From contig JADJOH010000002.1 in the NCBI GenBank assembly GCA_016713925.1, positions 371,701-435,700 of the forward strand: DNA of 64,000 nt, in the 5' to 3' direction. Below are positions 561 through 61,929 of the stretch, piece after piece. Under the pieces are notes generated by a model that saw only the letters and a program-made list of their open reading frames with translations, was not told where the DNA came from and did not search any database. Each line of letters begins with the position of its first letter. Position 1 is the stretch's first letter. This DNA comes from Bacteroidota bacterium (GTDB taxonomy: Bacteria; Bacteroidota; Bacteroidia; AKYH767-A; OLB10). A program made the position numbers and the translations under genes.

Positions 561-3500
561 TTATTTTGCTCTTACAAATCGCAGCGTTTGCTGATCTTTC
601 ATAGCATCTGTTAAAACGAGGGTATAAATTCCGGGAGATAAATTTTGGATAGATAGAGTTGATCCATCAACAGAAAGCACACCCTGCCATATCTGTTTAC
701 CGGTAAAGTCATAAATCACCCCCTGCATATCCTCTTCTAAACCGGTAAAATAGACCTGATCTTTCACCGGATTTGGCCATAGACTTACGACATTCTTCAG
801 CTTATCATTAAAATTAACGGCTATCCACCCTGTTAGTTCCTCGGCACCATTGATGTCTACCTGTCTGAGCCGGTAATAATTTTCACCTGCAAATGGATTT
901 TCATCAATAAAATTATAGGAAGAAGTAGAGGAGGAAGTACCTACACCGGTTACACTACCCAATTGTTGCACCTCGACAAAGTCACGCGTACGCTCCACTA
1001 CAAAATGGCTGTTATCCTTTTCTTCGGCTGTTGCCCATTCGAGGCGTACATTAGTACCGGATTTTTTACCGTCAAAAAACAACCACGCAACAGGAAGAGC
1101 CGCATTCAGACTTGCAAGCGCCCAATGGGTTTGACCACCTGCGGCAGGAACTGACACCTGATAAGCAAGAGCATTTTGCCCGGGTAAGGCAGCCATCCAG
1201 GTATTGGTGGGTGAATTATAAGCATGTGCTCTGATTAATCCCGCTGAATTATAAGGGATGCCGGGTAATTCCGTTGAAATATAATTAAACGTCAGGTTCA
1301 ACACCGGATTGGAGCCGGTATTTGCCATGCGCCAGAAACGATCAACAGTAGCCGTGCGGTTATCCGGAGTCAGACCTATATGACTGGTTAAATTGTTAAC
1401 ACCCGGAGGCCATGGGAGATTATTAGCAGGAGTACGATAGGTAGAGAAAGATACAATTCCCGCATTTCCACCCGTCATCTGATACGTTAAAGGAATGTAC
1501 TGAGTAGACGAATAACCCCAGGGAAGTAAATAGGTTCCGGTGGTTGAATTAATGGTCCATACGATTCGCGCGGAATGATCCAATGCTTCACTACGTATGA
1601 AACCTCCGGTACGCTGCATGGCGGTCGGCGAAGGATTTTCAATATGCACATAGCGACCACCGTTAACCGGGTTACCTGACGCATCAGAGAGATTGAATTC
1701 ACCGGCTGTCATGATCAGGCGGGTGCGTATATACACCGCCGTTGTAAATGTAGGTAGATAGGTGGGTGCTACCCAGGTTCCTGCGGGGCCCACATGATTG
1801 ATTTCCAGAATCCCGTATTTATGCTGCGGCAAGGTAGCTATTCCCACATTGATACCCGTTATTCTCGCGTAGGTAGATGTATTGTACTCGACGATACTAT
1901 TTGCTCCGAGAAAAAAATTCATGTTTCCTGCATTGCTGATCGCCGCATTGGACGTTCCATCATAGAGACCTGTTGTTCGTGCCAGTCTGAACCTTGCATT
2001 ATCTGCAACTGTTAAACCGGAATAGGTAAATAAAGTATCTGATGTCAGTTGATGTGTACCGATGGATAAAATACCCCCGGCTTCAATCTTCAACATATCC
2101 TGTATGGCGGTATTATGCGAACTCATCTGGAAAGGACCGGAAGTCACATTCACTGTACATCCGGTTCTAATCGTTTGTTTGCATTGCTGGATATTATGAG
2201 CGAGATTTCTGAAATAAGTGATGGTGCCCGGATATTCAAAAATAATTTTTGCAAACGTGCTGCCGGTACCACTACCCGCCCGATACATAGAGGCAGAATT
2301 GGAAATAGTATACGATGGACCGTTGATGTAAATTCTTTGTTCAGAAGGAGAGTCTGTAATATCAAAATGAATGATTCCACCCGATTGTGTAAAGCTGCCG
2401 TTGACATGCATATCCACAAAATTATTTGAAGGAGAAGCGGTACCCCACTGATCGGGACCGTGCATGTAGTAGAGGCTACCTACAAGGTTTTGTGTGAAAC
2501 TGCCATTAATAACCAGGCTGGCATGTCCGCCTGCAGCTTTTAAAATAAGTGTTCCGCCGGATAAAAGCAGATTTCCGTTCACAGTAATATTCGTGGAATC
2601 AGATGTGTTTTCGCTGAACCATACTGTTCCACCGCTGATCGTAAATCCACCCATTACGGCAGTGACTTTATGCCCGCTACCTTCGTTTAAACCGCCGTTA
2701 AACATAGCCTTGGCAGCAGTAACTGTAAACGTTCCTCCGATGGTTATCGTCTCATCACCAAAAGCTTCGGAAGAATTAAAAACACATGTTGATAAGCCGG
2801 AGATACTGAGGTTACCACCTACCGAAAAATTTAATTTGGTAGTCACATTATTTCCACTAATGGCCGAGAGACCCAGCAACTTTATATTATCTGTGGCAAC
2901 CGTAAATGCTACAGTGGCATTCCCCAGGATATTGACCACAGCGGTTCCATTTACGTTATGCGCGTAACTGGCCATAAAAGTTCCGCGTGTGTAGGACAAT
3001 GAATTGATGTTAATAGTGGGGACACCGTTGTTGAGGAGCAGTGGCGCATTAATTCCATAGAAATTTCCGGCAGAAGTAAAGACACCATTAATCGTAATAT
3101 TTGCATTTCCGATGCCATCCATAATACCGTTAAATGTCCCACCTGCTGTTGTAGTCAAATTATTAATTGAAAATGTGAAATGATTAGTGCCATTAAATAT
3201 ACCTGTGAAAATTCCTGCTGCACCGATACTTCCATTTCCATTCACTAAGAGTGTTGCAGTCCCGGGCATGGATTTTTTCACCTGCAATTTTCCATTGACC
3301 GTTAAATTGCTTCCAATGGTGATACTGATGTTTGACGAAGAGCTATCGAGAAATGTCTGACAATTTGTACCGACTGTCAGGTAGCCATTAATGGTTCTGG
3401 TGGTACCCAGTCCCTGATTATTCCACCAGTTTACTCCGGGATTCCAGTTCAGATTCAGGTGACCAAAATTTGTACCGACACCATTGATCAGCGGAACTGC

Positions 3501-3935
3501 AATAGATGACCAGTTACTGATGGTAACGGTACTGCTTATACCAAAAATCTCAGTCCCGGCAAACAATGAACTTGAAGCTACGACTGTACTGTTCTGAATT
3601 AAAGTACCTCCATTGGCTACATTCAATGTTCCTGTCACCGTTAATGATCTGTTTGTGGTTGATCCGCCACCGTTCTGCAAAGTGCCGCCGCTGTTGATGG
3701 TCACATTCGCGATCGTTGTATTAATATTCACAGTGACCGTGGTTCCGACACAAACGATGATATTATCTCCTGCTGCCGGAAAAGAAGCCGCCATAACACC
3801 GCCACACCCTACCGTTGACCAGGTGGTGAGCGCGTTCCAGTTACCGGTGACACGGGTATAATAAGTGGCCGCTGAAGAAAAATTCAGGTTCAGCAACAAC
3901 AATACCATCAGGCTAAAGAATATATTCTTCTTCAA
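561..3935 (-). CDS. Large secreted Gly/Thr/Asn-rich beta-helix-like adhesin with T9SS C-terminal sorting domain
   Basis: 1124-aa ORF. N-terminal signal peptide MKKNIFFSLMVLLLLNLNFSSA. Repetitive G/T/N-rich body. C-terminus ...LSPGIYTLVLTDAMKDQQTLRFVRAK matches the Por secretion system CTD pattern. Confidence 0.7.
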   Translation of the reverse strand: MKKNIFFSLMVLLLLNLNFSSAATYYTRVTGNWNALTTWSTVGCGGVMAASFPAAGDNIIVCVGTTVTVNINTTIANVTINSGGTLQNGGGSTTNRSLTVTGTLNVANGGTLIQNSTVVASSSLFAGTEIFGISSTVTISNWSSIAVPLINGVGTNFGHLNLNWNPGVNWWNNQGLGTTRTINGYLTVGTNCQTFLDSSSSNISITIGSNLTVNGKLQVKKSMPGTATLLVNGNGSIGAAGIFTGIFNGTNHFTFSINNLTTTAGGTFNGIMDGIGNANITINGVFTSAGNFYGINAPLLLNNGVPTININSLSYTRGTFMASYAHNVNGTAVVNILGNATVAFTVATDNIKLLGLSAISGNNVTTKLNFSVGGNLSISGLSTCVFNSSEAFGDETITIGGTFTVTAAKAMFNGGLNEGSGHKVTAVMGGFTISGGTVWFSENTSDSTNITVNGNLLLSGGTLILKAAGGHASLVINGSFTQNLVGSLYYMHGPDQWGTASPSNNFVDMHVNGSFTQSGGIIHFDITDSPSEQRIYINGPSYTISNSASMYRAGSGTGSTFAKIIFEYPGTITYFRNLAHNIQQCKQTIRTGCTVNVTSGPFQMSSHNTAIQDMLKIEAGGILSIGTHQLTSDTLFTYSGLTVADNARFRLARTTGLYDGTSNAAISNAGNMNFFLGANSIVEYNTSTYARITGINVGIATLPQHKYGILEINHVGPAGTWVAPTYLPTFTTAVYIRTRLIMTAGEFNLSDASGNPVNGGRYVHIENPSPTAMQRTGGFIRSEALDHSARIVWTINSTTGTYLLPWGYSSTQYIPLTYQMTGGNAGIVSFSTYRTPANNLPWPPGVNNLTSHIGLTPDNRTATVDRFWRMANTGSNPVLNLTFNYISTELPGIPYNSAGLIRAHAYNSPTNTWMAALPGQNALAYQVSVPAAGGQTHWALASLNAALPVAWLFFDGKKSGTNVRLEWATAEEKDNSHFVVERTRDFVEVQQLGSVTGVGTSSSTSSYNFIDENPFAGENYYRLRQVDINGAEELTGWIAVNFNDKLKNVVSLWPNPVKDQVYFTGLEEDMQGVIYDFTGKQIWQGVLSVDGSTLSIQNLSPGIYTLVLTDAMKDQQTLRFVRAK

Positions 3936-12394: not shown

Positions 12395-13924
12395 TTACAA
12401 TTTGATAGTTTTTGACGAAACACTTTCCGAATCAGTAATAAGATTGACCAGATAAACCCCATTCGCCACCGCATTCATCGGTATCTCTCCCGTCACATAC
12501 CCTCCTGCAATCACCTCCATTTTTTTCTCAAACACCAACCTCCCTTCCATATCAAACAACCGCAAACTTCCCGTTCTTCCTTTAAGTTTGGAGGCGTTGA
12601 CGTGAATCATATTCCACTCACTATTATACCAGGCTTGAAAAAACACCTCCTGCTCCGGTACATTATCATCCACCCCAACACTCAGCGTATCACAAGGACT
12701 CCCTACCCATGCACCGAGTTCATAATCGGGATTGTTGGGGAGGCCGTAATAGGAGCGGCCAGTTCCTAAATTAAAACTGAAGGGTTGAAAGTCACAGGCT
12801 GCTCCTAAGGAATCCGGATGATTAATTACACTTAAATTATTATTTATGGTAGTATAAGCGGTACTTGTATCAGGATATGGCCATGAATAATTTTCATCAA
12901 AAGCAGCTATATAAATCTTACCATCCGGTGCCAATTTCATTTGCCAGGGAGCTTGTGGAGCAACCATACTATCAATGATAACTTTGCTTTGAGAAATATT
13001 GGAAGAAAGTAAATCATACTGCACTAAATAGTATGTGTCGATTAACTGATCCAGATCCAGTATGTATAATTTAGAATCGTCACCTGAAAAGGCACACGTT
13101 GGATAAAGATGGATATAAGGTTGGCCGGGTGGTTCTTGTTCAACTGGTATTGTTGCTGTAATCATTCCGGTACACCTGTCAAAATCATATAACTCAACTA
13201 ATCCACGTCCGCTGATATTTGCAAATTTTGTTCCATCACTTGAAAAAACAAGCTGTCCAATATTCGTTGTATGATTGTTTCCGATATTTTGTACTGATGG
13301 TCCGGATATCCCCGTAGGAGAAATCAAATAAATCCGGAATTCATTGTTAGGAGTTTGTGCATTAGGTGCAACCCATTGCTGAGTAATCAACCACCAATCA
13401 CGACCATTACCATGTTTTACAGCCATTAATGCATCAAATGCAGGAAAAGTGTTAAGCACTATATTTTTCTGAATTACAAGCCCTGAATCATTATTAGCTT
13501 TATAGTTTACTTTCGAATAATATAGTCCATAACTTTCTACTGAAGTTACACCTGCCGTAAGTAAATAGATGTTTGAATCATTCCCCGGATCAGGAACAAA
13601 TAAACTCGCATGATACCATAGACCACCTTTAATTCTAATTGAATCACCTATTCGCTTACCATATTTGTTCCATATAAAACAATCAAGTGGTGCCGAATTA
13701 TTAATTAATCCAGCACTCATTAATAGTCCATTTTGATTACCAATGGATGAGCTGCCATTTCGATAGTAATATGGACCATTTCCAACTGCTGGAGCCGCAG
13801 TATTACTCCAATCTATATAAGCACTGTCTCCAAACACCCAGTAGTTGTTATTGAACTGAGCAACCACCTTCCCACACCCTACAACCGCAGTCATCAACAA
13901 CAAAGCGCAAAAGAATTTTTTCAT
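12395..13924 (-). CDS. Secreted protein with T9SS C-terminal sorting domain
   Basis: Likely start MKKFFCALLLMTAVVGCG (the track ORF extends to 13969). C-terminus ...NGVYLVNLITDSESVSSKTIKL is CTD-like. Confidence 0.6.
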   Translation of the reverse strand: MKKFFCALLLMTAVVGCGKVVAQFNNNYWVFGDSAYIDWSNTAAPAVGNGPYYYRNGSSSIGNQNGLLMSAGLINNSAPLDCFIWNKYGKRIGDSIRIKGGLWYHASLFVPDPGNDSNIYLLTAGVTSVESYGLYYSKVNYKANNDSGLVIQKNIVLNTFPAFDALMAVKHGNGRDWWLITQQWVAPNAQTPNNEFRIYLISPTGISGPSVQNIGNNHTTNIGQLVFSSDGTKFANISGRGLVELYDFDRCTGMITATIPVEQEPPGQPYIHLYPTCAFSGDDSKLYILDLDQLIDTYYLVQYDLLSSNISQSKVIIDSMVAPQAPWQMKLAPDGKIYIAAFDENYSWPYPDTSTAYTTINNNLSVINHPDSLGAACDFQPFSFNLGTGRSYYGLPNNPDYELGAWVGSPCDTLSVGVDDNVPEQEVFFQAWYNSEWNMIHVNASKLKGRTGSLRLFDMEGRLVFEKKMEVIAGGYVTGEIPMNAVANGVYLVNLITDSESVSSKTIKL

Positions 13925-14103
13925 CACAATAAAATTACGGAAAAAATTTGTAAAAAACATAGCGCTCAATAAAATTCTGGTGGGCCGCAGATTTGTTAAG
14001 ATTATTATGATTTGTTAGGAGAACTCGCCGCGCACGCCGCTTTCCCGATACTTCAGGACGTTGCCTTCCCATCGCTTAAACTAAGGTCACTTTTAGGAAG
14101 ATG

Positions 14104-16476
14104 TTACAATTTCACCAGTCGTTCGGTCACTTCAAGTTGTCCGGTAAGAACACGCACCAGATAGACACCTTTGGGGTGTTTGCTGAGATCAATGGAAATT
14201 CCTTTTCCTGCAGAGAGGACTTCCACCGAAGTATAGATCACTCTTCCCATTGCATCAAGCACAGTGATGTTCGCCCTTTCGCCATTGAGCACATCGGTAG
14301 AGATAGCAAAAACACCCTCCGAAGGATTCGGGGTAATCTTGACAAGTCCGCTTTGATAGAGAATATTGATACCGGTCACTGTAACACAACCGTTGAAAAT
14401 GCTTTTCAGGGTTTCTTCGTAATCGGCATTCACGGCCGCGTTGATGGAAGCTACACAAACGGTTGTACTTGTCAATGTACTGAAATACACTCTGACAAAG
14501 GGCATTGCTGTAAGTTGTTTGCCCAATGAAACTTCAGCAGTGTCCAGCAAAGCAATGCGTCCGGTAGCGGCATTCCATTCTATCAACGGATAAAAACCAC
14601 CCACAAGCGAAACCACAGAATCAATCACTACACCACTCATCGTAAAATCGAGGGCGAGTAAGCGGCAATCGGGATTGAGCATATTTAAATCAATATAGTT
14701 CAACGTTTGATTGACCATTCCGATTCCTAAATGCACTGTATCGTTGGTGTTGACAATGTTAAACGGAAACTCACAATGCCGATGCGTATTTTGCGTAGCT
14801 CCCGGGTGAACATGTGAACCATTTGTTTCACGAATACATCCGCTCACAAGAGCCGCATCCGTAACCGTGAGTGCATTATCTCCATTCACATCATTGCAAG
14901 GCATGACAGCATTAAGTGCAGTGATATCTACGAGGTACTGGTCGACATCAATATCATTTCTTAATGTATCCACATTCAAATCACCACTAATACGACTGCC
15001 GTTACAATTCCCCATACAATCGTTGATGGCTAATCCAAATGTATCTCCGGCACAATCAATGATCGGCTGACAATTGGGGAGGACAGTGAACGAGGGTACA
15101 TTCGCTGTATCGCGAGTGATATTGATACAAACAGCGGCTACGTTATTATCAAATCGTTGCTCCTGTCTGCCGAGTTTATCCGGATCCTGATCCCAGTTAA
15201 CACGAACAACCAATGTATAACGTCCGGCAGGAATATTAGTAACGTCCAGCCATTGACAGGCCAGTCCGGCGCCATAGATATCTGCACAGCCTGCTGAGAT
15301 ACCCATATTGCTGCAACCGTATTTCGCCGTTCCTCCGAAGCACTGGAGATCAAGTACACAAAATCCATTTTTAAATCCTGCCTGCAGTGGCACTCCCAAA
15401 CTATCGTAAATATTATACATCGCATAGCCGGCATAATGCCAGTGGCCGTGACATTGATCAAAAACAAACTGTGAATTACCGGTAGCAGGAGCACCAATAT
15501 AATAATCAGCATCACCGATATTGGCGATACGCGTACTGAAGTTAATTACATTTCTGGCACCATAACCCGACAAACACCCTTCGCCAATCAGGCAAGCATC
15601 GTTACCGTTTACAATACCCATATTGAGCGATGACAGCAATGTATTCCCATCCACAATAAGATCAGGTCCTGAATTACAATTCGGATCCCCGGGATAAATA
15701 CAACTACCATTGCTCACTGTAGCCAAAGGATTATAGTTACAAGCCGCAGGATCCAGACAACCTACGATTGGTCCGGCAAAAGCGATCTGCCATTGGATGC
15801 TATCCGTAATGCAAGATGTATCACCTCCTACCCGAACATAATATGTTTGTCCGCTTTGCAAACCGGCAGGAATGAAGGCCTGTATGCCACAAGTGCTGTC
15901 GTTGTAAAAGAGTGTACCGGCCATGTCGTTGTTCCAAATGAGTCCGGCGCAATGATCATAGATCCACAACCGGGTATCACAACTATTGGAAGGAAAGCAA
16001 GTAGAAATATTATAGGTTCCGGTTGAATCCGGTGTAAAACTATGCCAGGTACTTGCACCGTATGCCGTGTAGAGAGTATCTTCATACACGGTGAATGCAC
16101 TCCCGCAATGTGTGCCGGGAGGACAATTGAGATAACTGTACTCGTTATATGTAAATTGACCGCCGGCTGCCTGAATAACACTATTCACCGCCACTGCATA
16201 GAAGCCATTTCCAAAACTACAGCACATCCCATCTCCATAAGTATCCCGGATTTCAAAAATCAGACAAATTCCCTGAGGGACGCAGAGTGTATCTCCTACT
16301 GCACCACCTGCAGCCAGAATGGTCCCGGATAAATCCTTTAAACTCCAACTGGTTTCCCCGGGAAATTGATCCGGTTGTATGGTCACTATGACCTCACTGA
16401 ATCCGGAAGGGCATTGTGCATGGAGAGTTATTGGCTTTAAGAATAAAACCAAGGCAAGCAATAAGAGATGTTTCAT
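14104..16476 (-). CDS. T9SS-secreted lysyl-oxidase-like copper amine oxidase domain protein with Cys-rich N-terminal region and dockerin-like Ca-binding repeats
   Basis: Signal peptide MKHLLLLALVLFLKPITLHAQ. LOX catalytic-domain signatures: FDQCHGHWHY (His-rich Cu site), AGFKNGFCVLD (candidate LTQ Lys), GCADIYGAGLACQWLDVTNIPAGRYTLVVRVN (candidate LTQ Tyr) and RFDNNV. DVNGDNALTVTDAAL is dockerin-like. CTD KGVYLVRVLTGQLEVTERLVKL. Confidence 0.6.
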   Translation of the reverse strand: MKHLLLLALVLFLKPITLHAQCPSGFSEVIVTIQPDQFPGETSWSLKDLSGTILAAGGAVGDTLCVPQGICLIFEIRDTYGDGMCCSFGNGFYAVAVNSVIQAAGGQFTYNEYSYLNCPPGTHCGSAFTVYEDTLYTAYGASTWHSFTPDSTGTYNISTCFPSNSCDTRLWIYDHCAGLIWNNDMAGTLFYNDSTCGIQAFIPAGLQSGQTYYVRVGGDTSCITDSIQWQIAFAGPIVGCLDPAACNYNPLATVSNGSCIYPGDPNCNSGPDLIVDGNTLLSSLNMGIVNGNDACLIGEGCLSGYGARNVINFSTRIANIGDADYYIGAPATGNSQFVFDQCHGHWHYAGYAMYNIYDSLGVPLQAGFKNGFCVLDLQCFGGTAKYGCSNMGISAGCADIYGAGLACQWLDVTNIPAGRYTLVVRVNWDQDPDKLGRQEQRFDNNVAAVCINITRDTANVPSFTVLPNCQPIIDCAGDTFGLAINDCMGNCNGSRISGDLNVDTLRNDIDVDQYLVDITALNAVMPCNDVNGDNALTVTDAALVSGCIRETNGSHVHPGATQNTHRHCEFPFNIVNTNDTVHLGIGMVNQTLNYIDLNMLNPDCRLLALDFTMSGVVIDSVVSLVGGFYPLIEWNAATGRIALLDTAEVSLGKQLTAMPFVRVYFSTLTSTTVCVASINAAVNADYEETLKSIFNGCVTVTGINILYQSGLVKITPNPSEGVFAISTDVLNGERANITVLDAMGRVIYTSVEVLSAGKGISIDLSKHPKGVYLVRVLTGQLEVTERLVKL

Positions 16477-32798: not shown

Positions 32799-33302
32799 AT
32801 GAATCTAAACAGCTTACTGGAAAAGGCGAAAACGTCGGGGTTTTACAAATGGTTATTTAACATCGTACTTTGGAGGACCATTCCCTTTAATCAGCCGCAT
32901 CGATTAAAAGTGGAGCAGGTAAAGGAAGACACATTACTCATCTCCATTCCTTTCATTCGCAAAAACAAAAACCATATTAATGGAGTTCATGCTTGTGCTT
33001 TGGCTACGCTTTGTGAATACATCAGCGGACTGAGTCTGGCGCGCGCGCTTCCACCGGAGCAATACCGGCTAATTCTGAAATCCATACAGATGGAATACCT
33101 GTACCAGGGCAAGATGAAAGTAAATGCTGAATTTGGAATTGATCAATCGGAGTTAGCTGCCATTAAAGCTGCATTGGTCACTGAAGATTCCATAGTAAAA
33201 ACTTATGCTGTTCAGGTATTCGACACCAACCAACATCCTATTTGCACCGGCTCCATTACCTGGCAGATAAAGCCTTGGGGGAAGGTAAAGGTTCAGGCTT
33301 AA
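32799..33302 (+). CDS. DUF4442-like hotdog-fold protein
   Basis: 167 aa with a thioesterase-like (hotdog) pattern. Confidence 0.4.
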   Translation: MNLNSLLEKAKTSGFYKWLFNIVLWRTIPFNQPHRLKVEQVKEDTLLISIPFIRKNKNHINGVHACALATLCEYISGLSLARALPPEQYRLILKSIQMEYLYQGKMKVNAEFGIDQSELAAIKAALVTEDSIVKTYAVQVFDTNQHPICTGSITWQIKPWGKVKVQA

Positions 33303-33322
33303 TGAAGGTTCCTATGGGTATT

Positions 33323-33820
33323 TTATTTTTTTGTTTTACTTTTTGATGCTTTTGCACCCGATGAATTCATTGACAGGAGTCTTTCATCAAAAAAATAATC
33401 TCCAATCAAAGCTAATTTCACAACCCCAAAATCAGGATGTTCCGTGTTAATTAAAAAATTAAATTCCTTGGTAATAATTGAAGAAGGGACTTTCAAAACC
33501 AATGATTTCCTTTTATTATACCAATCTGTTCCAATAGCTTTTAATTCAGGATAGGCGGAAACTTCTCTCCAATATGATGGCAAATGGCCGATCTTCACTT
33601 CTGTTATAAAATCCGGATTATCCGGAATAAAAATCACCATCACTTTATAAACAACTTTAGGGTGAATACTTTGAAACCTTATAACCTTCTCCAGTGTGCC
33701 TAAAGCTCTTGACGAGGCAGTGTAAATAACAAATTCATTATCATCATTCCACCGCCCTGCTATTCCGGATGCAATTAAATCCGACGCATACTTTTCCTCT
33801 GCAATTCTAAAAAGCTCCAT
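33323..33820 (-). CDS. RES domain toxin (NAD+-targeting toxin family of type II TA systems)
   Basis: GRWNDDNEFVIYTASSRALGTLEKVIRF matches the RES-domain core (Arg...Tyr/Thr-Ala-x-Ser...Glu). 165 aa. Sits 2 nt downstream of the antitoxin gene. Confidence 0.65.
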   Translation of the reverse strand: MELFRIAEEKYASDLIASGIAGRWNDDNEFVIYTASSRALGTLEKVIRFQSIHPKVVYKVMVIFIPDNPDFITEVKIGHLPSYWREVSAYPELKAIGTDWYNKRKSLVLKVPSSIITKEFNFLINTEHPDFGVVKLALIGDYFFDERLLSMNSSGAKASKSKTKK

Positions 33821-33822
33821 CG

Positions 33823-34257
33823 TTAAGCATTATCACCGTATTGCATACCCGTTAATTGGTTATCGATGAATTTAATTCCCGCTACGGTATCTATAAAATA
33901 TATAGGAGGCTTATTGTCAAAATAATAATTGTTCTCGTTCAGCCATTCAATAAATAAATCCTTTTCACCAAAAACTTCTTCTCCATGCTTGTAAAGTGAA
34001 AGAATTTTTATCCAATGTTCCTTTGCCAATTTTGTTTTAAGCATTGCACCCACTAAGGTATAATTTCTTAACGTTCGGATACTAATTTTTAATAAATCTG
34101 AAATATATTGGTCATTAAATTTTGTAATTCTTTTTATAAAGGCAATTGACTGTTTGTCCAATAACTCAGAGGAAATAAGTTTTAATATTTTATCTTCATT
34201 TAAGGGACTATTCGGTATTTCCTTAAGGAGAATTTTTTCTGCTGTTGCTGTTGTCAT
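33823..34257 (-). CDS. Xre-like / DUF2384 antitoxin (MbcA/ParS-type) paired with the RES toxin
   Basis: C-terminal DLFIEWLNENNYYFDNKPPIYFIDTVAGIKFIDNQLTGMQYG resembles the DUF2384 toxin-binding domain. Probable start MTTATAEK at 34257 (the track ORF extends to 34368). Confidence 0.55.
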   Translation of the reverse strand: MTTATAEKILLKEIPNSPLNEDKILKLISSELLDKQSIAFIKRITKFNDQYISDLLKISIRTLRNYTLVGAMLKTKLAKEHWIKILSLYKHGEEVFGEKDLFIEWLNENNYYFDNKPPIYFIDTVAGIKFIDNQLTGMQYGDNA

Positions 34258-34573
34258 ATTCTTAATTCTTAGTAAATATAAGGACAAAAGGCAATTTTGC
34301 AAAAATAAAAGGTAGATTTTACATTTATGTAATACATTACATTGTTTATCAATACTATAAAAAACCATAATTCTAACACTTCAACTTCTTAATTAATAGG
34401 TTTATCTACATAGTTAGCGCATAATATCAGGTTAGGAAGTTAAATCAATTTAATCTGAATTTTACTAAAATTACCAGGAATTATACCTGCACCCGACTTC
34501 CTTCATCAAAACTTTAAAGAACAATAGTTGTGATCGCCCATAGCTTTCTTAACTTTGTAGAAACCGTTAATCT

Positions 34574-35017
34574 ATGAAAAAAATATTTAGTGCCCTCCTT
34601 CTGGTGATCTTATTCAACACCACCCCTACTTTCGGACAAGATCAAAAAATAGCAGCCACTACTGAAGACGAATATGTAATGGGTTCGGTAGGTTATAAAA
34701 TGCTGATGCAAATGAAAGTGGAATTAAAGGGAGGTTATAAAGTAAAAGATCTCAAAGATTACGAGTATGGAGAACGCAAAGCCTCTTTCAAAGGACTTTA
34801 TCGACCATCAGAACAACAACCCTGTGCCATCATAATGGTATATACCAAATTGCGCGGCGCTCCTGAATATTATTGTATCCCTACGTTGGATGCACCGGAG
34901 TCGTTATGGGATCGCTTTCGTGTTAGTCTGGCGGGTGAGACGGACAACAAACAAGAGCAACTGCAATTTTTCAGTTTTGCTTTTGCGAAGGCGATGATGT
35001 TTCATATGGCTAAATGA
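34574..35017 (+). CDS. Hypothetical secreted protein
   Basis: Signal peptide ...TPTFGQ. Stop overlaps the next gene's start (ATGA). Confidence 0.5.
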   Translation: MKKIFSALLLVILFNTTPTFGQDQKIAATTEDEYVMGSVGYKMLMQMKVELKGGYKVKDLKDYEYGERKASFKGLYRPSEQQPCAIIMVYTKLRGAPEYYCIPTLDAPESLWDRFRVSLAGETDNKQEQLQFFSFAFAKAMMFHMAK

Positions 35018-35634
35018 CAAAAACAATCACGTTATTGTTTCTCCTGTTAACGTTTCCGGCTTATACTCAATCGAGGATTTCTGCTTTCTTTAAGTTAAGC
35101 GGACCTGAAAAATGCTGGACGCTGACACATCTGTTTAAAGCCGGAAGAGCACATCGTATTACCGCTTATGTGAGAAATGAAACGACCATTCTCTATCGCA
35201 AACAGGAACTCGACACCTTTCCTCATGGAGGAAAATTAGATGCCTTCCGTCATGCTTTCTGGATGGCTTGTCTGGGGACTACCATCGGAGAAAAAGCATC
35301 CCGTAAACTCGGCAAGGCGCATGAAAAAGGGAATTACAAAGCCTTTAAAAGAGGGAAAACAGAAGATGGATATCTGCAAGATGCCACCGCTGTAGAGATG
35401 GATCTTTTTAATAATGAAGAAGGATTGCGCATTGCAAGAGAAAACAAAGAAGTGGCGTTTTCCGAACTGCAACAGAAAACAATCGCAGCCATCCATGAAG
35501 GAAAAATGAAAATTATGAAAAGAGATGCTCAGGGAAGGTTGACAGACTGTAACGGAAAAGTAACACCTTTGGTAGAACGAAAAAAAACAGATTGGAAAAT
35601 GCCTTACTGCCTCCTGCCAAGTCATATACACTAG
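35014..35634 (+). CDS. Hypothetical secreted protein with HGGKLDAFRHAFWMACLG motif
   Basis: Signal peptide ...AYTQ. 206 aa. Translationally coupled to the upstream ORF. Confidence 0.5.
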   Translation: MTKTITLLFLLLTFPAYTQSRISAFFKLSGPEKCWTLTHLFKAGRAHRITAYVRNETTILYRKQELDTFPHGGKLDAFRHAFWMACLGTTIGEKASRKLGKAHEKGNYKAFKRGKTEDGYLQDATAVEMDLFNNEEGLRIARENKEVAFSELQQKTIAAIHEGKMKIMKRDAQGRLTDCNGKVTPLVERKKTDWKMPYCLLPSHIH

Positions 35635-35702
35635 TGCTGACTATTCAATTCGCTCGTTAACTATAAAAATAAAATATTTAATTTAGTACAGTTATTTATG
35701 CC

Positions 35703-36896
35703 ATGAAAAAGACCTCTCTTATACTTCTATTCACCCTCTATTTCACAAGTTCTGTTACCGCACAGGAAAAGGAAGGGATCAATTTCCGCGCCATCACATT
35801 TGATCAGGCGATTCAACAAGCGAAAGCTGAGAAGAAACCCATCTTCCTGCATGCCTTTGCCTCCTGGTGTCACTTTTGTGAATTCATGGTAGATAGTGTT
35901 TATAAAGATCAGGAGGTGGCGGCGTACTATAACAAAAACTATGTCTGCATTAAAATGGATATGGAAAAAGAGGGAAGGGAGTTCAATAAAAAAATTAAAA
36001 TTAAAAACTATCCCACACATGTTTTCTTCGACTATAACAATACAGTGATGATGCATCGCTCGGCGGGGAAGAAAAACATTGCTGAGTTTCTTCAGTTAGG
36101 AAAAGATGCACTGGACACCACCAAACAACTGCGTACGTTTGAAAGAAAATACTTCGACAAAAAAGCCAATATCGAAGAGATCACGACCTATATGAAGATG
36201 CTCGAAAAAGCGGGATTGGATAATCAGGTAACGATCAACGCTTATCTCAGCGGGTTGAGTGATAAGGAGATGTTGAAACATGAGAACTGGAGAATCATGT
36301 ACGATCTCTTCAAAGAAGTGGAAACGACCTCTTTTCAAAAAGTCATGTATTTACGGGAAGAGTACGCTAAAATTTACACTGCTTACAGTATTGATAATAA
36401 AATCATCTCACTTTACAATTCTGCTTTAATGAATCGTGTTCAGAAATTAGATACTTCCGGCTACAACACGATGGTAGAGAAACTCCGCAAATCGGAATTA
36501 GATCTCTCTGAAAAAATCATTGCTTATGCTTCATTGAACCGACATAAGATGAGATCCGATTGGAAAAACTATCAACTCGAAGCCGTGCCCTTCATTGAAA
36601 AATATTGCATGGAAGATTACCGACGGTTAAATGAAGTCGCGTATAATTTTTATGAACGGATAACGGATAAAGAATTATTGGCGAAAGCAGAAACCTGGGC
36701 AGTAAAAGCAGTTTCCCTGCAAGATAATATCCGTAACAACCATACGCTTTCAGGCATCTATTTCAAACTCGGAAAAAAAGAGCCTGCCCTGACCGCCTGC
36801 AAACATACCATTGACCTCGCAAAAAAAGCCAATGTGGATTATAAACAGTCCAGTTTACTGTTGGAGAAGATTGAGGAGATGAAGAGTGTGGAATGA
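35703..36896 (+). CDS. Secreted thioredoxin-fold protein with C-terminal alpha-helical domain
   Basis: Signal peptide. FASWCHFCEFM CxxC motif inside a thioredoxin-like N-terminal domain. Confidence 0.55.
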   Translation: MKKTSLILLFTLYFTSSVTAQEKEGINFRAITFDQAIQQAKAEKKPIFLHAFASWCHFCEFMVDSVYKDQEVAAYYNKNYVCIKMDMEKEGREFNKKIKIKNYPTHVFFDYNNTVMMHRSAGKKNIAEFLQLGKDALDTTKQLRTFERKYFDKKANIEEITTYMKMLEKAGLDNQVTINAYLSGLSDKEMLKHENWRIMYDLFKEVETTSFQKVMYLREEYAKIYTAYSIDNKIISLYNSALMNRVQKLDTSGYNTMVEKLRKSELDLSEKIIAYASLNRHKMRSDWKNYQLEAVPFIEKYCMEDYRRLNEVAYNFYERITDKELLAKAETWAVKAVSLQDNIRNNHTLSGIYFKLGKKEPALTACKHTIDLAKKANVDYKQSSLLLEKIEEMKSVE

Positions 36897-36985
36897 AATT
36901 TTTCCAAGAATAGCACATATGATTAATTTCAAGGTTCTTTATACACGAGACTCCTAATGTAATTATTTTAACAAAACAATTAAAA

Positions 36986-37693
36986 GTGTTACGAAAAACC
37001 TTCTTCATCTTATTATTTGCTTTGAATATTAAATGCAGTGGGCAAAATACATTAAATAATGATATTTCAATTTCCGGTATTATACCTTCCAATGATCAAA
37101 TACAATTTCCGGTCAATAATGCAAATGGAAGATTAATATATTACTTATTTTCAATAAACTATTGTAACTTTTGGAAAATTTATGATAGAATTGAACTTGG
37201 CCCCCTATTATCCATAACAACCGGAATAACCAAAGTTGAATTTAATAGTGATGTTCGTAATGGTGATCGTTTATCAAGTCTAAATTATAAAGCATTGGGA
37301 ATTGGTTTGAGATCACGATGTTTACTAAATAAAAAAGATGCTAATAAGAAATTCTTTTTGAATCTGGATTTTCAAAGACAAATAGTCAGAGCCTATTCCA
37401 TTACATTTTCTTCTCGAACAAATTTTCCAAACACAGACTACTTTGAAAATACGGTTTCAACATATATAAAGCCAAATTCTATAAAGAATCACTTTGCGAC
37501 TTCCTGCACTTATCAAACTGATAAAAAGAAATGGGGATATGAATTCTCCATTGGAATAATCTATGTTACCCCGGAAATATATTCATATGATTTAGGCAGC
37601 AATTATTCCATAAATGGATTAAGTAGTACCGGTAAAAAGAAAATCGAGAAAAACGGGATTCTTATAACAAGCGGATTTGGAATTCTTTTTTAG
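36986..37693 (+). CDS. Hypothetical outer-membrane beta-barrel-like protein
   Basis: Signal peptide. C-terminal ...GFGILF aromatic terminus. Very AT-rich coding sequence (about 30% GC). Confidence 0.45.
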   Translation: MLRKTFFILLFALNIKCSGQNTLNNDISISGIIPSNDQIQFPVNNANGRLIYYLFSINYCNFWKIYDRIELGPLLSITTGITKVEFNSDVRNGDRLSSLNYKALGIGLRSRCLLNKKDANKKFFLNLDFQRQIVRAYSITFSSRTNFPNTDYFENTVSTYIKPNSIKNHFATSCTYQTDKKKWGYEFSIGIIYVTPEIYSYDLGSNYSINGLSSTGKKKIEKNGILITSGFGILF

Positions 37694-37824
37694 ACCAATG
37701 TACGTTGTCCTATCATAAAATTGGAGTTCCACAAATATTTACAAAAGAGAAGTTTATACGAGTAAATTCAAACCTTTCTACCCATCTCCTTCAAAGCTTA
37801 TGTACTTAAAACATCTAAACTTAT

Positions 37825-38229
37825 TTATTGCTTTACTACCTCTGCAAACGCAATCACATGTCCATCCGGATCTGAAAAATAGACAACACGATGGCCCCAG
37901 TCGCGGAGGGCAGCGGGACTTACTAATTTTGCTTTGGCGGTGAGAGCGAGCGCACATGCAGCATTAATATCATCTACGAGCCAGTAGATTTCACATCGGG
38001 GTATTCCTGTTGCGGTTTCAGGATGTGGTAAATTTGGATGGATGATTTTGGCTATTCCATCATTGGGCATTAATCCTAATTTACATGTATCAGATAAAAT
38101 GAACTCCGTCATGCCAGGCACATGGAGGGATGGTTGACGGGAGAGGATGATGGAATAAAACTCAGTACTCAGATCCTGATCCCTGACGTAAAGTATTATT
38201 TCCGTTTGTATCAATGATTGTACTTGCAT
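37825..38229 (-). CDS. VOC family protein (glyoxalase/bleomycin resistance fold)
   Basis: 134 aa with a VOC-like pattern (ILYVRDQDLSTEFY...VYFSDPDGHVIAF). Confidence 0.55.
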   Translation of the reverse strand: MQVQSLIQTEIILYVRDQDLSTEFYSIILSRQPSLHVPGMTEFILSDTCKLGLMPNDGIAKIIHPNLPHPETATGIPRCEIYWLVDDINAACALALTAKAKLVSPAALRDWGHRVVYFSDPDGHVIAFAEVVKQ

Positions 38230-47987: not shown

Positions 47988-48542
47988 ATGAAAATTTCAA
48001 TTAATATTAAAAGAGTAATTCTAACAACTTTGGCTTGTTTCATGGCAGCTATACTTCCGCTTATTTTTTCTGCATCAGAATTGATTTATACTTTATCTGT
48101 GCCTCTCTTTTATTCAATAGCAATACCATTGACCAACTTAGACAGGGTAATTACCAAAAGAAAGTCCCAAGCTTTTGTACTTAGTATCTTGTTGACAATA
48201 ATTCTGTTTTTTTCATCTGTTTCATTGGGACTTTTACTTGGTCAGAGTTTTTTGGGAACTTATTCTATTCATGTTGTTTGTTTAATTTCCGGACTTTTGA
48301 CATTACTTATAAACAGTATTTTTATCCGAATTGATAATATACTACTAGGATTATTAATAACAGGATTTTTTGCTCTCCCTGTACCCTTTTTGACAATATT
48401 TTTGAAAGGACATAAAATATTTGACATAGATCTATTTGGCGACCCGGTAACTTTTTTTATAGTTTGGCCAACGATAATGGGTCTGGCTATTTCAATAAGT
48501 ATATGGACAAAGACAACCATTACTAAAGCAATCATCGAATAA
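47988..48542 (+). CDS. Hypothetical polytopic membrane protein (AT-rich, about 31% GC)
   Basis: 184 aa with 5-6 hydrophobic segments. Composition is atypical for the window. Confidence 0.45.
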   Translation: MKISINIKRVILTTLACFMAAILPLIFSASELIYTLSVPLFYSIAIPLTNLDRVITKRKSQAFVLSILLTIILFFSSVSLGLLLGQSFLGTYSIHVVCLISGLLTLLINSIFIRIDNILLGLLITGFFALPVPFLTIFLKGHKIFDIDLFGDPVTFFIVWPTIMGLAISISIWTKTTITKAIIE

Positions 48543-48709: not shown

Positions 48710-49351
48710 ATGACAAAAACTCTTTACATATTTAGCGGACTGGGGGCTGATGAAAGAGTCTTTCAACGACTTGACTTTTCCGGCTTTTCGACAACTTACA
48801 TCAAATGGATTGTTCCGCAAGACAATGAAACTATTGAGCACTATGCAACACGACTACTTGACCAAATTACAACTATAAAACCGACTTTAATCGGACTTTC
48901 ATTCGGTGGACTAATAGCTATTGAAATTGCAAAACAAATTGAAACTGAAAAAGTAGTTTTAATCGCTTCTGTAAAGACTAAAAAAGAAATTCCCCTTTAC
49001 TATCGTTTGGCCGGACAACTTGGACTTCATAAACTTATTCCAACAGCCTTTTTAAAAAGCTCAACCTTTCTTACAAATTGGTTCTTTGGCACAGGTTCAA
49101 AGTTTGAAAAGCAACTTTTAAAACAAATTCTTATGGACACCAATCCAGTTTATTTGAAGTGGGCTATTGAAAAGGTGGTAAAATGGAGAAATCAAAAAGA
49201 GACCATAAACATCTTTCATATACACGGGACAGCCGACAGAATTCTACCATTAAAAAATGTAAAATGCAACGCGATAATCAAGGATGGTGGTCACTTTATG
49301 ACCTTAAATAAGGCCGATGAAATCAACAATATTTTAAGACAGCAGATATGA
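48710..49351 (+). CDS. Alpha/beta hydrolase fold protein
   Basis: GLSFGG nucleophile-elbow motif. 213 aa. AT-rich. Confidence 0.55.
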   Translation: MTKTLYIFSGLGADERVFQRLDFSGFSTTYIKWIVPQDNETIEHYATRLLDQITTIKPTLIGLSFGGLIAIEIAKQIETEKVVLIASVKTKKEIPLYYRLAGQLGLHKLIPTAFLKSSTFLTNWFFGTGSKFEKQLLKQILMDTNPVYLKWAIEKVVKWRNQKETINIFHIHGTADRILPLKNVKCNAIIKDGGHFMTLNKADEINNILRQQI

Positions 49352-58419: not shown

Positions 58420-61400
58420 CTAGCGTAAAAAGATTAGCGGCATTGAGTAAACAATTCCGGAAGTCAGGTTCAGAGAATGACTCACGGTAACGGGTACATT
58501 TAAACGCACATCACCACCGGGTTTATCCACTATCATGCGACGTATAACAGGAGGGAACAAGAGATGACCTCTTATTTGTTGCGTTGTGTTTCCATTCAGT
58601 GTAACAAAACCGGCACCTGAATTAGCAAAAGTAATAGCCGTAGTTGAACTGTCGGTTAAAATATCACCGCCAAATGTACAGATACTATTACTTGCAGGTG
58701 ATAAAACACCGGCACCTGTTTGAATAAAAGAGGCATTGCTGTTAAAGTCATCGGGATTAGAATTTGCCAATACGAAACTACCGGTTCCACTATTTTTAAT
58801 GATGACGTGCTGATTAAAAATATTTCCACCATTTGAAGTATTTCCTCCAGCGCCGTTCTTTTCGACACGGGCTGTTGAATTAAAAACTGCACCGTGCAAA
58901 TACACTTGAGGAAAACTGAAGTCAACCGCTCCATTAAAAGTTGAATTTAAACTTAAATACAGCGCCGCCGTTCCGCTCGTCATGGCGAGTGATTGAGGAG
59001 TATTTCCTACTTGAGTAAATCTTCTCAAATTCAACTCACCTCCCGTATAATTCCCTGCTCCGATTAATATCCTTTTCCCATCTGCCAGTTGAGAGGAACC
59101 ATTGCCACCGCCGAAACGGATGCCTGCTGAGCCTGTACTATTTAGAATCAGATCCGCGTTGAACTCGGTTACACCTCCATTGTATCCCACATGAATTAAT
59201 CCTGATCCTGCGTTGGTAAATTCAACGACATCATTAAAAACATCTCTGGTGGAATTCGCCAACAAGAGATATCCGGTTCCGGAATTCATAAAAGAAGAAG
59301 AAGCATTAAAAATATTATTCCCATTACCGGCATCGTTTGCTGCCCCGGTTTTAGTGACAGAAATTGTTCCATTAAAAGTCGCACCATTAAAACAGATACC
59401 TCCACTGTTTATGGAAACATCTCCATTCAAAACCAAAGCAGGTCCCAGATTAAGTATGGCCCCTGTCCCCAGTGTAAAGGAAAGAGGGTTGGCACCCGTC
59501 TGTGTGAAGCGGGAAAGGTTTAATGAACCGGAATTGAAGCCCGATGTTCCCACAATAAATGTTTTACCTGTGGCCAACGAAGATGTACCTGTGCTCGCAC
59601 CAAACCGTATGCTTCCGTTACTTGTAGAGGAAACTATAATATTTTCATTAAACTCTGTATTAGTGCCTCTGTGTGCTAAATAAATTATTCCACTTGAATT
59701 TGTCGTTGCTGAAAGAACTCCATTATAAATATCTCTCACTGAATTAGAAAAAACCATATAGCCCGTACCATTATTCACGATAGAAAGAGAATCGCTAAAA
59801 ACGTTATTTCCGTTTCCGGTATTATTTCCTGCCCCTGTTTTTAACAAACTCACTTTTCCACCAAATGTACCACCGTTCATACACACTCCTCCGGCTTCCA
59901 CATTTAAAGGACAAGCCATCTGAGCTGCCGGACCAATGGTTACAGTAGCATTTGGTCCGGTAGAAATAGTTTGAGGAATTGTTGCTGACATGGTTACAGC
60001 ACCTAACATCAGATCTCCGCTCACAAAACCTGCATTCCCTGCTAATATGGATTTTCCATCTGCCAAAATAGCCGTTCCATTGCCTGTGCTGATTCGAACT
60101 CCACCTCCACCACCTGAGCTGTTGAGGAAAACATTTTCGTTAAAGAGTGTATTCGTTCCCTTATGCGCCACATAAATGGTACCTGTACCATTACTGCTAA
60201 AAGTAGCCGGAGCATTAAAAATATCTCTTGTACTATTCGACATGACCATATAGCCTGTGCCATTGTTAATCACGTGTACGGAATCATTGTAGGTAGTATT
60301 GCCACTGCCATTATCATTCGAGCTTCCTGTCTTTACTGCTGTTAACTTCCCGTTGAAAGTACAACCGGATAAACACATTCCACCACTTGTTACAGTTACA
60401 TCATCTGCAAAGGAGGTAGAAGGTCCTAGTGTAAGCGTAACCGCATTACCCAAACTTAAATCAAAGTTTCCGGCCGGAAAAGCAATACCGCCCAATTGTA
60501 AACTTCCGCTTTCAAATCCCGCCCCACCTACTCTGATGGATTTACCCGCTGCCAGCATTGAAGTACCTGCAGCATTACCAAAACGAATGCTTCCTGTAGA
60601 AGTACTACTTACATTCACATGATCATTGAACTGAGTATTGACACCGTTATGTGCGACATAAAGGACTCCGGTACCAGTACTGTTAAATGTCACTTCTCCA
60701 TTGAAAATATCTCGGGTAGAATTGGAAAAAGACATGAATCCTGTTCCCTCGTTGGTTATCACGGTGGTACCATTGTAGGTATTATTCCCTGAACCGTGCG
60801 TGTTGGCAGCTCCGTTCTTAGTGATATTTACATCGCCATTAAACACAACCCCGTTCAGACTAACGCCCGGACTTACCGCTATAAAATCAGATGGAAAAGT
60901 AGTTGCAGGTCCCAATGTTAAAACAGCACTTCCGTTTAATGTAAGTGACTGATCTGAACTACCGGCTATGGACATACGTGATAATTGAAGTGTTCCGCCG
61001 GAAAACCCGGTATTGCCAATAGTTAATTGTTTATCTGCTGCCAGTATGGACGTACCATTGCTTCCTCCAATTCTAATTCCTCCCCCGGTACTGTTAAAAA
61101 TCAGATTCTCATTAAACTGTGTATTTGTTCCATTATAGGCGATGTAGAGGACTCCGGCGCCCGTGCTATTTAAAGTTAAAGGAGCATTATAAATATCGCG
61201 GGTAGAATTCGAAAAAATCAAGTACCCCGTTCCTGAATTGGTAATAAAAGTGGAATCATTGAAAGTATTATTCCCTGAAGCAACATCATTGCTTGCACCT
61301 GTTTTAGTCAACCGGGTGATCCCATTAAATGTAGTATTTCTTACAGTCACAATTCCTGAATTCACTTCAATATCCGTATGAATAGTCGGTCCGGCTGAAC

Positions 61401-61929
61401 CGCTTCCGAATACGGTGGAACTGCCATTGGTCACCATGTTGCCAGTACCGGTTGAAGTGGCAATAGTGCCACCGTTGAACGTTGCGTTTCCATTAACAAC
61501 CAGGTTTCCTCCTCTTAGTTCTAAAGTGGAAGTCGTATTCATCACAAAACTACCTGCTAATGTCAATGAAAATCCATTCATATCTAACTGTGAACCGGAA
61601 TTCATTGTTATATCTGATGTATTTACGGCATTGTCTAAAACAGGATATCTGCTCAAGGAGGAAGGGATCGTGATTTGATCATTAATTGTAGGCAATCCCG
61701 AAGGCGTCCAGTTGTTTGAGTTGGACCATAAACTATCAGAAGAGCCATTCCAGGTATAACTGATTCCGGCAACAGCGGTGGTATTGACACCCAAATTCCA
61801 ATAAATCAATCCTGCAACAAAGGCAAAAACAGAGAAAATACCTCCTGCAATCAGATAGCGTTGCACGAGTTTAGTCCTTTGTTGTTGTTTGATTTTCAAC
61901 CTTTTAACTTTAGTTTTAGCTCTTTCCAT
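58420..61929 (-). CDS. Very large repetitive Gly/Thr/Asn/Ser-rich beta-helix-like adhesin (N-terminal portion; signal anchor)
   Basis: 1169 aa. N-terminal TM/signal anchor. Six or more internal repeats of about 160 aa (e.g. GNNTFNDSTFITNSGTGYLIFSNSTRDIYNAP...). Confidence 0.6.
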   Translation of the reverse strand: MERAKTKVKRLKIKQQQRTKLVQRYLIAGGIFSVFAFVAGLIYWNLGVNTTAVAGISYTWNGSSDSLWSNSNNWTPSGLPTINDQITIPSSLSRYPVLDNAVNTSDITMNSGSQLDMNGFSLTLAGSFVMNTTSTLELRGGNLVVNGNATFNGGTIATSTGTGNMVTNGSSTVFGSGSAGPTIHTDIEVNSGIVTVRNTTFNGITRLTKTGASNDVASGNNTFNDSTFITNSGTGYLIFSNSTRDIYNAPLTLNSTGAGVLYIAYNGTNTQFNENLIFNSTGGGIRIGGSNGTSILAADKQLTIGNTGFSGGTLQLSRMSIAGSSDQSLTLNGSAVLTLGPATTFPSDFIAVSPGVSLNGVVFNGDVNITKNGAANTHGSGNNTYNGTTVITNEGTGFMSFSNSTRDIFNGEVTFNSTGTGVLYVAHNGVNTQFNDHVNVSSTSTGSIRFGNAAGTSMLAAGKSIRVGGAGFESGSLQLGGIAFPAGNFDLSLGNAVTLTLGPSTSFADDVTVTSGGMCLSGCTFNGKLTAVKTGSSNDNGSGNTTYNDSVHVINNGTGYMVMSNSTRDIFNAPATFSSNGTGTIYVAHKGTNTLFNENVFLNSSGGGGGVRISTGNGTAILADGKSILAGNAGFVSGDLMLGAVTMSATIPQTISTGPNATVTIGPAAQMACPLNVEAGGVCMNGGTFGGKVSLLKTGAGNNTGNGNNVFSDSLSIVNNGTGYMVFSNSVRDIYNGVLSATTNSSGIIYLAHRGTNTEFNENIIVSSTSNGSIRFGASTGTSSLATGKTFIVGTSGFNSGSLNLSRFTQTGANPLSFTLGTGAILNLGPALVLNGDVSINSGGICFNGATFNGTISVTKTGAANDAGNGNNIFNASSSFMNSGTGYLLLANSTRDVFNDVVEFTNAGSGLIHVGYNGGVTEFNADLILNSTGSAGIRFGGGNGSSQLADGKRILIGAGNYTGGELNLRRFTQVGNTPQSLAMTSGTAALYLSLNSTFNGAVDFSFPQVYLHGAVFNSTARVEKNGAGGNTSNGGNIFNQHVIIKNSGTGSFVLANSNPDDFNSNASFIQTGAGVLSPASNSICTFGGDILTDSSTTAITFANSGAGFVTLNGNTTQQIRGHLLFPPVIRRMIVDKPGGDVRLNVPVTVSHSLNLTSGIVYSMPLIFLR

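Follow-up and report, generated by a model that had tools for sequence, protein, structure and literature searches.

A type II RES-Xre toxin-antitoxin cassette with a predicted NAD+-using toxin, inserted in a variable slot of a Bacteroidota chromosome

RES-Xre modules are a well-described family of toxin-antitoxin (TA) systems of type II, with six solved complexes. The antitoxins ParS (PMC7758455) and MbcA (PMC6436930) neutralise their partners by pushing their C-terminus into the toxin's active site, and the Xre-RES pair of Pseudomonas putida represses its own promoter at an imperfect inverted repeat (PMC12204516). ParT ADP-ribosylates Prs (PMC7758455); the activity of VPA0770 is disputed, with nicotinamide adenine dinucleotide (NAD+) depletion described in one study (PMC12204516) and a predicted ADP-ribosyltransferase function in another (PMC12457610); RES-Pp is only a predicted glycohydrolase, and glycohydrolase activity has been proposed for both RES-Pp and RES-Pl (PMC12204516). 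The two-gene locus compared with these systems here comes from an assembly labelled Bacteroidota bacterium (GCA_016713925.1); the stretch analysed, 64,000 nucleotides (nt) of contig JADJOH010000002.1 (positions 371,701 to 435,700 of the forward strand), is called the window in what follows, and all positions are counted from its first letter. The pair is an uncharacterised member of the RES-Xre family that automatic annotation had already recognised, and with six complexes solved its significance goes little beyond correct annotation; the additions to that annotation are that the pair itself is inserted DNA, and that the exact NAD+-using reaction is not readable from sequence. The preferred reading, to which we assign a probability of roughly 0.85, is that the locus holds a complete type II RES-Xre cassette, gained by horizontal transfer, with a NAD+-using toxin and a neutralising and autoregulating antitoxin. 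Of this, the data show the anatomy of the genes, the families to which they belong, the conservation of active-site residues and of the pairing, purifying selection on both genes, and the status of the cassette as an insert.

Both genes lie on the minus strand in the same orientation, the Xre-type antitoxin gene upstream (33823-34257) and the RES-domain toxin gene downstream (33323-33820, ATG to TAA, 165 amino acids [aa]). Only the letters "cg" separate the antitoxin stop codon TAA (33825-33823) from the toxin ATG, a gap of 2 nt; the coordinates of the open reading frames (ORFs) bear out the adjacent minus-strand genes and 2-nt spacing described in an earlier reading made from the DNA letters without database searches (the sequence-only reading). 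The toxin length of 165 aa given there is correct, whereas the antitoxin has 144 aa and not 145, since its 145 codons include the stop. A mechanical ORF call extends the antitoxin to 34368 (181 aa); this longer version was rejected and the start is placed at 34257, because the antitoxin homologues are 143-144 aa long, with an N-terminus of the form M-x-T-A-T-A-E-K, and because a conserved candidate promoter lies within the extension.

The toxin matches the Pfam family RES (PF08808, COG5654) over residues 3-135 with 47.9 bits (gathering threshold 23.2, E = 1.9e-12), the profile search that the sequence-only reading had proposed for its RES-domain claim, and the NCBIfam model Res_ParT_toxin (NF049844) over its full length with 123 bits (cut-off 110, E = 7.9e-36). 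An identical protein is already in NCBI, where the Prokaryotic Genome Annotation Pipeline (PGAP) gives it the product name "RES family NAD+ phosphorylase". The core motif quoted in the sequence-only reading, GRWN...VIYTASSRALGTLEKV, was located at toxin residues 22-46. In an alignment of 17 family members with 29-78% identity to the window protein, residues R5, R23, W24, Y33, E44, S113, N121 and H128 are invariant; the Arg, Glu and Ser positions on which the RES assignment had been staked are thus present throughout, as the triad R23 (in A-G-R-W), E44 (in L-E-K-V) and S113 (in V-P-S), with the correspondence to ParT taken from a HMMER alignment. By motif and spacing rather than direct alignment, R5, R23, Y33, E44 and S113 correspond to R27, R47, Y58, E69 and S126 of MbcT, in which R27, R47 and Y58 are essential for toxicity and the alanine mutants are non-toxic (PMC6436930); R5, Y33, S113 and N121 fit, again by motif and not by direct alignment, the active-site residues of NatT (R23, R82, Y93, S184 and N193; PMC11535050). 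Residues R5, R23, Y33, E44, S113 and N121 are the predicted active-site residues of the window toxin.

An ADP-ribosyltransferase-like fold is predicted for the toxin by its AlphaFold2 model (predicted local distance difference test [pLDDT] 90.1, predicted template modelling score [pTM] 0.83). In Foldseek comparisons the model matches ParT with a template modelling (TM) score of 0.80-0.83 and a root-mean-square deviation (rmsd) of 2.2 Å; further matches are VPA0770 (TM 0.73-0.77), RES-Pp, MbcT (0.65) and NatT (0.50), with diphtheria toxin and PARP matching weakly. The alignment delimits a Lys-rich tail, residues 150-165 (SMNSSGAKASKSKTKK; 33326-33373, minus strand), which is confined to the close subclade of the family and is predicted to be disordered; pLDDT falls to 56 and 50 in the last two 10-residue blocks of the model.

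The C-terminus of the antitoxin had been likened to the DUF2384 toxin-binding domain, and a search with the corresponding Pfam family, Xre_MbcA_ParS_C (PF09722, COG5642), agrees: residues 92-141 match model positions 2-51 of 51 with 36.4 bits against a cut-off of 24.5 (E = 5.4e-9). The toxin-binding domain is predicted to extend over approximately residues 79-144 and closes with a conserved G-D-N-A; among 36 sequences, the C-terminus is constant in length and ends in G-D-x-x. A putative N-terminal helix-turn-helix (HTH) region, with short helices in the structure model, occupies approximately residues 38-75 and includes the invariant residues T62 and Y66. No Pfam HTH family passes its threshold on the antitoxin (best MerR, 0.072); the antitoxin family profile spans the HTH region of 8GUG_B (positions 30-141, 3e-12) and aligns weakly to the Xre-type regulators 3OP9 and 3MLF. 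The structure model, built from a shallow alignment of 14 sequences, has a pLDDT of 84.5, and its top 13 Foldseek matches are all antitoxins of RES toxins; the top fold matches are two-domain Xre antitoxins with TM scores of 0.5-0.6. The closest solved structures of the pair are RES toxins bound to Xre-type antitoxins, which supports the original identification of the two genes as RES toxin and Xre antitoxin.

The two genes are found together well beyond the window. Homologues of the toxin were collected in 85 loci, from 5 metagenome contigs and 80 GTDB species representatives, mostly of Bacteroidota (Hymenobacter, Ferruginibacter, Cytophagales, Saprospiraceae) with some Ignavibacteria and Balneolaceae. 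The antitoxin has a tblastn match in 82 of these loci, and in 80 the end of an upstream ORF falls between -4 and +26 nt relative to the start of the toxin, the commonest gap being 2 nt; the neighbouring genes are unrelated between loci. Among the window and loci L001 and L003, the toxin has a ratio of nonsynonymous to synonymous substitution rates (dN/dS) of 0.08-0.16 and the antitoxin one of 0.06-0.10; since all values fall within 0.06-0.16, both genes are under purifying selection and are maintained. In this close subclade the antitoxin has diverged less than the toxin (L001 and L003; identity 72-90% vs. 68-78%, dN 0.07-0.13 vs. 0.15-0.21); distant comparisons reverse the order, with 45-49% identity for the toxin and 24-39% for the antitoxin. 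Toxin relatives with at most 51% identity occur on megaplasmids of Spirosoma and Pontibacter, and 1,603 plasmid records contain a match. A function as an anti-phage defence system was considered and is not supported: PADLOC did not match the toxin and gave nothing above noise with the antitoxin, and no phage record contained a relative of the toxin. In another Bacteroidota metagenome-assembled genome (loci L003-L005), the Xre-RES cassette adjoins an MNT (Polbeta/NTP_transf_2) gene and a HepT-like gene (L003:2926-3553); the HepT-like gene is called at only 39 aa, and the arrangement looks like a small TA cluster in which one toxin is apparently truncated.

The region upstream of the antitoxin gene contains a candidate promoter. 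A candidate -7 box, TATATTTA (34273-34280, minus strand), lies 16-23 nt before the antitoxin ATG and is invariant when the sequences upstream of the antitoxin gene in L001, L002, L003 and the window are aligned; across 77 family loci, the motif TAnnTTT[GA] peaks approximately 25 nt before the antitoxin start. The TTTG at 34300-34303 (minus strand), 19 nt upstream of the -7 box, was read from the sequence as a candidate -33 element. The combination of -33 TTTG and -7 TAnnTTTG is what we take to be the Bacteroidota sigma-A consensus, and the window elements fit it; a scan with the sigma-70 consensus, the wrong promoter type for Bacteroidota, was uninformative (9 sites vs. 6.7 expected). Between the -33 and -7 elements lies a candidate operator, the imperfect palindrome GCAAaaTTGC (34291-34300); palindromes of the type TGGAAAT(A/T)TTTCCA occupy the same position in L001, L003, L021, L017 and L035. 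Of 77 distinct upstream regions, 31 contain a palindrome whose arms measure 6 nt or more; the shuffled average is 15.9, and none of 200 shuffles gave more than 24. Many of the family palindromes are centred approximately 40 nt before the antitoxin start. The strongest palindrome upstream of the antitoxin gene in the window, ATGTAATgtATTACAT (34327-34342, arm 7, from the 150 nt that were searched), was discarded as an operator candidate; its strength was reached in 504 of 2000 shuffles, and it lies outside the conserved cassette. The 10-mer AAAGGCAATT at 34287-34296 takes in the candidate operator's right half; it recurs exactly 149 nt downstream at 34138-34147, inside the antitoxin ORF; the second copy could be a secondary binding site or a product of chance.

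Two comparisons delimit the cassette and the slot in which it lies. Blastn against L001-L006 (75-77% nucleotide similarity) defines a minimal cassette unit of promoter/operator, xre and res common to these genomes (33380-34323, minus strand); similarity to the homologous cassettes ends at 33380, ahead of the codons of the toxin tail (33326-33373). Synteny with relatives L086, L088, L089 and L091 defines a variable slot (33303-34573) between a conserved DUF4442 gene and a conserved 147-aa gene. In L091 (405-1301), L088 (4140-4622) and L086 (1030-1278), this slot is occupied by a minus-strand Cupin_8/JmjC gene (298 aa), and in L089 (1128-1548) the same gene is reduced to decayed fragments; no Cupin_8/JmjC remnant was detected in the window (tblastn E>1). 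L086 is the closest relative in the slot comparison, with 87% nucleotide identity to the window as far as 33289. It is thus the TA cassette that forms the variable insert, standing where relatives carry the Cupin_8/JmjC gene, and the locus provides a clean case in which a TA cassette of about 1 kb has taken the place of a housekeeping-type gene while the slot is otherwise syntenic.

According to the sequence-only reading, the pair marks the left end of an AT-rich and probably acquired segment. The region is indeed richer in AT than its surroundings, with a GC content of 0.33-0.40 in 33001-38000 compared to 0.43 for the window, but an acquired island starting at the pair is ruled out by the composition of the individual genes and by synteny with relatives. 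The GC outliers in this interval are the two TA genes (0.347 and 0.297) and the ORF at 36986-37693 (0.298), against a gene mean of 0.428; the genes in 34574-36896 have a GC content of 0.39-0.42. In L089 and L091, homologues of the gene at 34574-35017 and of the DUF6973 gene come after DUF4442, and L091 adds a thioredoxin-like gene; since they are neighbours of DUF4442 in these relatives, the genes to the right of the TA pair are ancestral and not acquired. Terminal repeats or target-site duplications were not found around the cassette, where only short AT-rich matches of chance quality occur; the scanned ORFs between 29718 and 40910 contain no integrase, transposase or recombinase domain, and the window contains no tRNA or Rfam element. 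That the clean replacement of Cupin_8, with no recombinase nearby, reflects a slot-specific exchange rather than plain homologous recombination is improbable.

By analogy with the characterised systems, we infer toxicity, neutralisation, autoregulation and the type of reaction catalysed. Both genes probably share one transcript, with the antitoxin leading, from the candidate Bacteroidota-type promoter approximately 20-45 nt upstream of 34257. The C-terminal Xre/MbcA/ParS domain of the antitoxin would bind the toxin, and its conserved C-terminus would block the NAD+ pocket; this plugging is suggested by homology to the solved complexes 6D0H, 8GUG, 6GW6 and 6FKG together with the conservation of the C-terminus. 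The N-terminal HTH probably represses the operon at the palindrome overlapping the promoter. Under antitoxin shortage, free toxin would use NAD+, and growth arrest would result. As to the reaction, ParT-like mono-ADP-ribosylation of a protein, Prs for example, is slightly favoured over NAD+ degradation, at about even odds.

Several points weigh against this interpretation of the locus or parts of it. The operator candidate of the window is weak, with arms of 4 nt, and palindromes in the window do not rise above chance. The antitoxin scores 68.2 bits against the NCBIfam model Xre_ParS_antitoxin (NF049845; E = 5.8e-19, residues 35-142), and because this is below the curated cut-off of 90 it is not filed under that subfamily; it is homologous to the members of that model but more divergent than they are, and its Pfam, profile and fold matches hold regardless. 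With no more than 30% identity to ParT, and with ParT only slightly ahead of VPA0770 and RES-Pp, these comparisons do not assign a reaction type. Lowered NAD+ is the outcome for most RES toxins that have been studied in vivo (PMC12204516), and some RES-Xre pairs are not toxic alone, as for NatT (PMC11535050) and GndR (PMC12457610). Experiments on the window protein or on any Bacteroidota RES-Xre member were not found in the literature.

The best-surviving alternative retains the TA module and changes the reaction: the toxin would degrade NAD+ by hydrolysis or phosphorolysis, and growth would be arrested by an emptied NAD+ pool. This is a serious possibility, somewhat short of probable. NAD+ is lowered by RES-Pl, MbcT, SlvT, PA14_51010/NatT and VPA0770 (PMC12204516) and by GndR (PMC12457610); the NAD+-binding residues are conserved in the window toxin, RES-Pp and VPA0770 are also strong profile matches (1e-26 to 1e-31), and PGAP names the identical protein a phosphorylase. 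Yet this product name is over-specific, because it derives from the most distant relatives, MbcT and NatT, whereas the nearest relative, ParT, is an ADP-ribosyltransferase; the name, as applied to short RES toxins, is better read as "NAD+-utilising RES toxin". The in-vitro phosphorylases MbcT and NatT yield no sequence match at E<1, the flap of NatT is missing from the window toxin, and neither sequence nor fold nor flap indicates a specific relationship to their subgroup. A fall of NAD+ in vivo does not discriminate between the reactions, since Prs makes phosphoribosyl pyrophosphate (PRPP), which is required for NAD+ synthesis.

It is unlikely that the locus is a non-canonical pair of the kind represented by GndRX in Legionella and NatRT in P. 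aeruginosa, with a toxin that is non-toxic alone and active only in complex or under specific stress. Such behaviour is documented for core-genome RES-Xre pairs (PMC12457610, PMC11535050), and the greater conservation of the antitoxin in the close subclade is unusual for a simple addiction pair; however, GndRX and NatRT carry an N-terminal flap and belong to a long, NatT-like class that the window toxin does not resemble, and flap-less RES toxins are toxic alone (PMC11535050). The cassette is also not part of a core genome; it is missing from the slot of the closest relatives and occurs in unrelated contexts elsewhere, as is typical for a mobile canonical TA module. We consider it similarly improbable that the Bacteroidota subclade, with its short toxin and Lys-rich disordered tail, its more-conserved antitoxin and its GGAAA..TTTCC-type operator in a -33/-7 promoter, differs meaningfully from the proteobacterial and actinobacterial models; such differences might include an ADP-ribosylation target other than Prs, or a role of the basic tail in regulated proteolysis or localisation. 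That the cassette is a decaying or inactive remnant without present function is very improbable: chromosomal TA cassettes often decay, and the operator palindrome of the window is weaker than those of its relatives, but both ORFs are full length, the conserved catalytic and C-terminal residues are intact, and dN/dS values of 0.06-0.16 point to purifying selection in the two genes.

The window is otherwise an ordinary stretch of Bacteroidota chromosome, with cargo proteins of the type IX secretion system (T9SS), UvrD, PurL and Acs. To the right of the slot, the 147-aa gene (34574-35017; signal-peptide-like N-terminus, no Pfam match) overlaps the DUF6973 gene (35014-35634) by 4 nt, and the two stay together next to DUF4442 in L089 and L091 as a conserved two-gene unit. 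Other AT-rich ORFs are found at 36986-37693, 47988-48542 and 48710-49351 (GC 0.298, 0.308 and 0.354; GC at third codon positions 0.24-0.31), the first two without a Pfam match; all three may be further acquired genes. In the 790-aa protein encoded at 14104-16476, a lysyl-oxidase domain (1.5e-28) occurs together with a T9SS C-terminal sorting domain; Por_Secre_tail is also present on the ORFs at 561-3935 and 12395-13969, and a 1169-aa ORF at 58420-61929 has no Pfam match at E<=0.001.

Among the solved systems, ParT is the nearest relative of the window toxin by every measure (64 vs. 43 bits for the single sequence, 122 vs. 113 for the profile, rmsd 2.2 vs. 3.0 Å). The ParT/ParS complex of Sphingobium sp. 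YBL2 (6D0H) is matched by the single toxin sequence at 1.2e-16, by the toxin profile at 1.8e-34 and by the antitoxin profile at 7.6e-5, the last a weak match that covers only the C-terminal 48 residues of the crystallised ParS fragment. The window toxin shares with ParT a short, flap-less RES fold of about 160 aa, an identity of 30-31% and the core G-R-W...Y...S-S-R-A-L-x-x-L-E; the locus shares with ParST the order of antitoxin and then toxin in the operon, and an antitoxin, encoded upstream, whose C-terminal domain is of the DUF2384 type. The differences are the low toxin identity of 30%, the distance between Bacteroidota and Alphaproteobacteria, and the additional Lys-rich disordered tail; ParT acts on Prs, as the window toxin may. 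A characterised Bacteroidota member was not found in the literature, and this clade would therefore extend the tested range of the family.

The remaining systems stand at increasing distance. VPA0770/VPA0769 of Vibrio parahaemolyticus (8GUG) provides the second-best toxin match (single sequence 3.5e-10, profile 9.7e-32) and the best antitoxin match across both domains (profile 3e-12, positions 30-141); identity is 19-25%, and the Vibrio system has been described in 4:2 and 8:4 assemblies. The P. putida RES/Xre pair (6GW6, 9R35) is matched by the toxin at 3.6e-9 and 8e-10 for the single sequence and at about 1e-26 for the profile, and by the antitoxin profile at 6.5e-9. It likewise combines a two-domain antitoxin with a short RES toxin, and its autoregulation is the model for the promoter-overlapping palindrome in the family of the window toxin; it differs in sequence (17-26% identity), and the window locus has a promoter of the Bacteroidota -33/-7 type and a different candidate operator sequence. 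MbcT of Mycobacterium tuberculosis (6FKG) and NatT of P. aeruginosa (8QNL) are the most distant solved relatives (TM 0.65 and 0.50, 8-15% identity); neither toxin was found at E<1 with the single sequence or the profile, and the antitoxin profile matches NatR at 1.5e-8 and MbcA at 0.13. The NatT flap domain is missing from the window toxin (165 vs. 250 aa). What is shared with MbcT/MbcA and NatT/NatR is membership in the RES superfamily, with the R-E-S and Arg/Tyr motifs of the NAD+ site, and the C-terminal plug of MbcA and NatR is paralleled by the conserved C-terminus of the window antitoxin (PMC6436930, PMC11535050).

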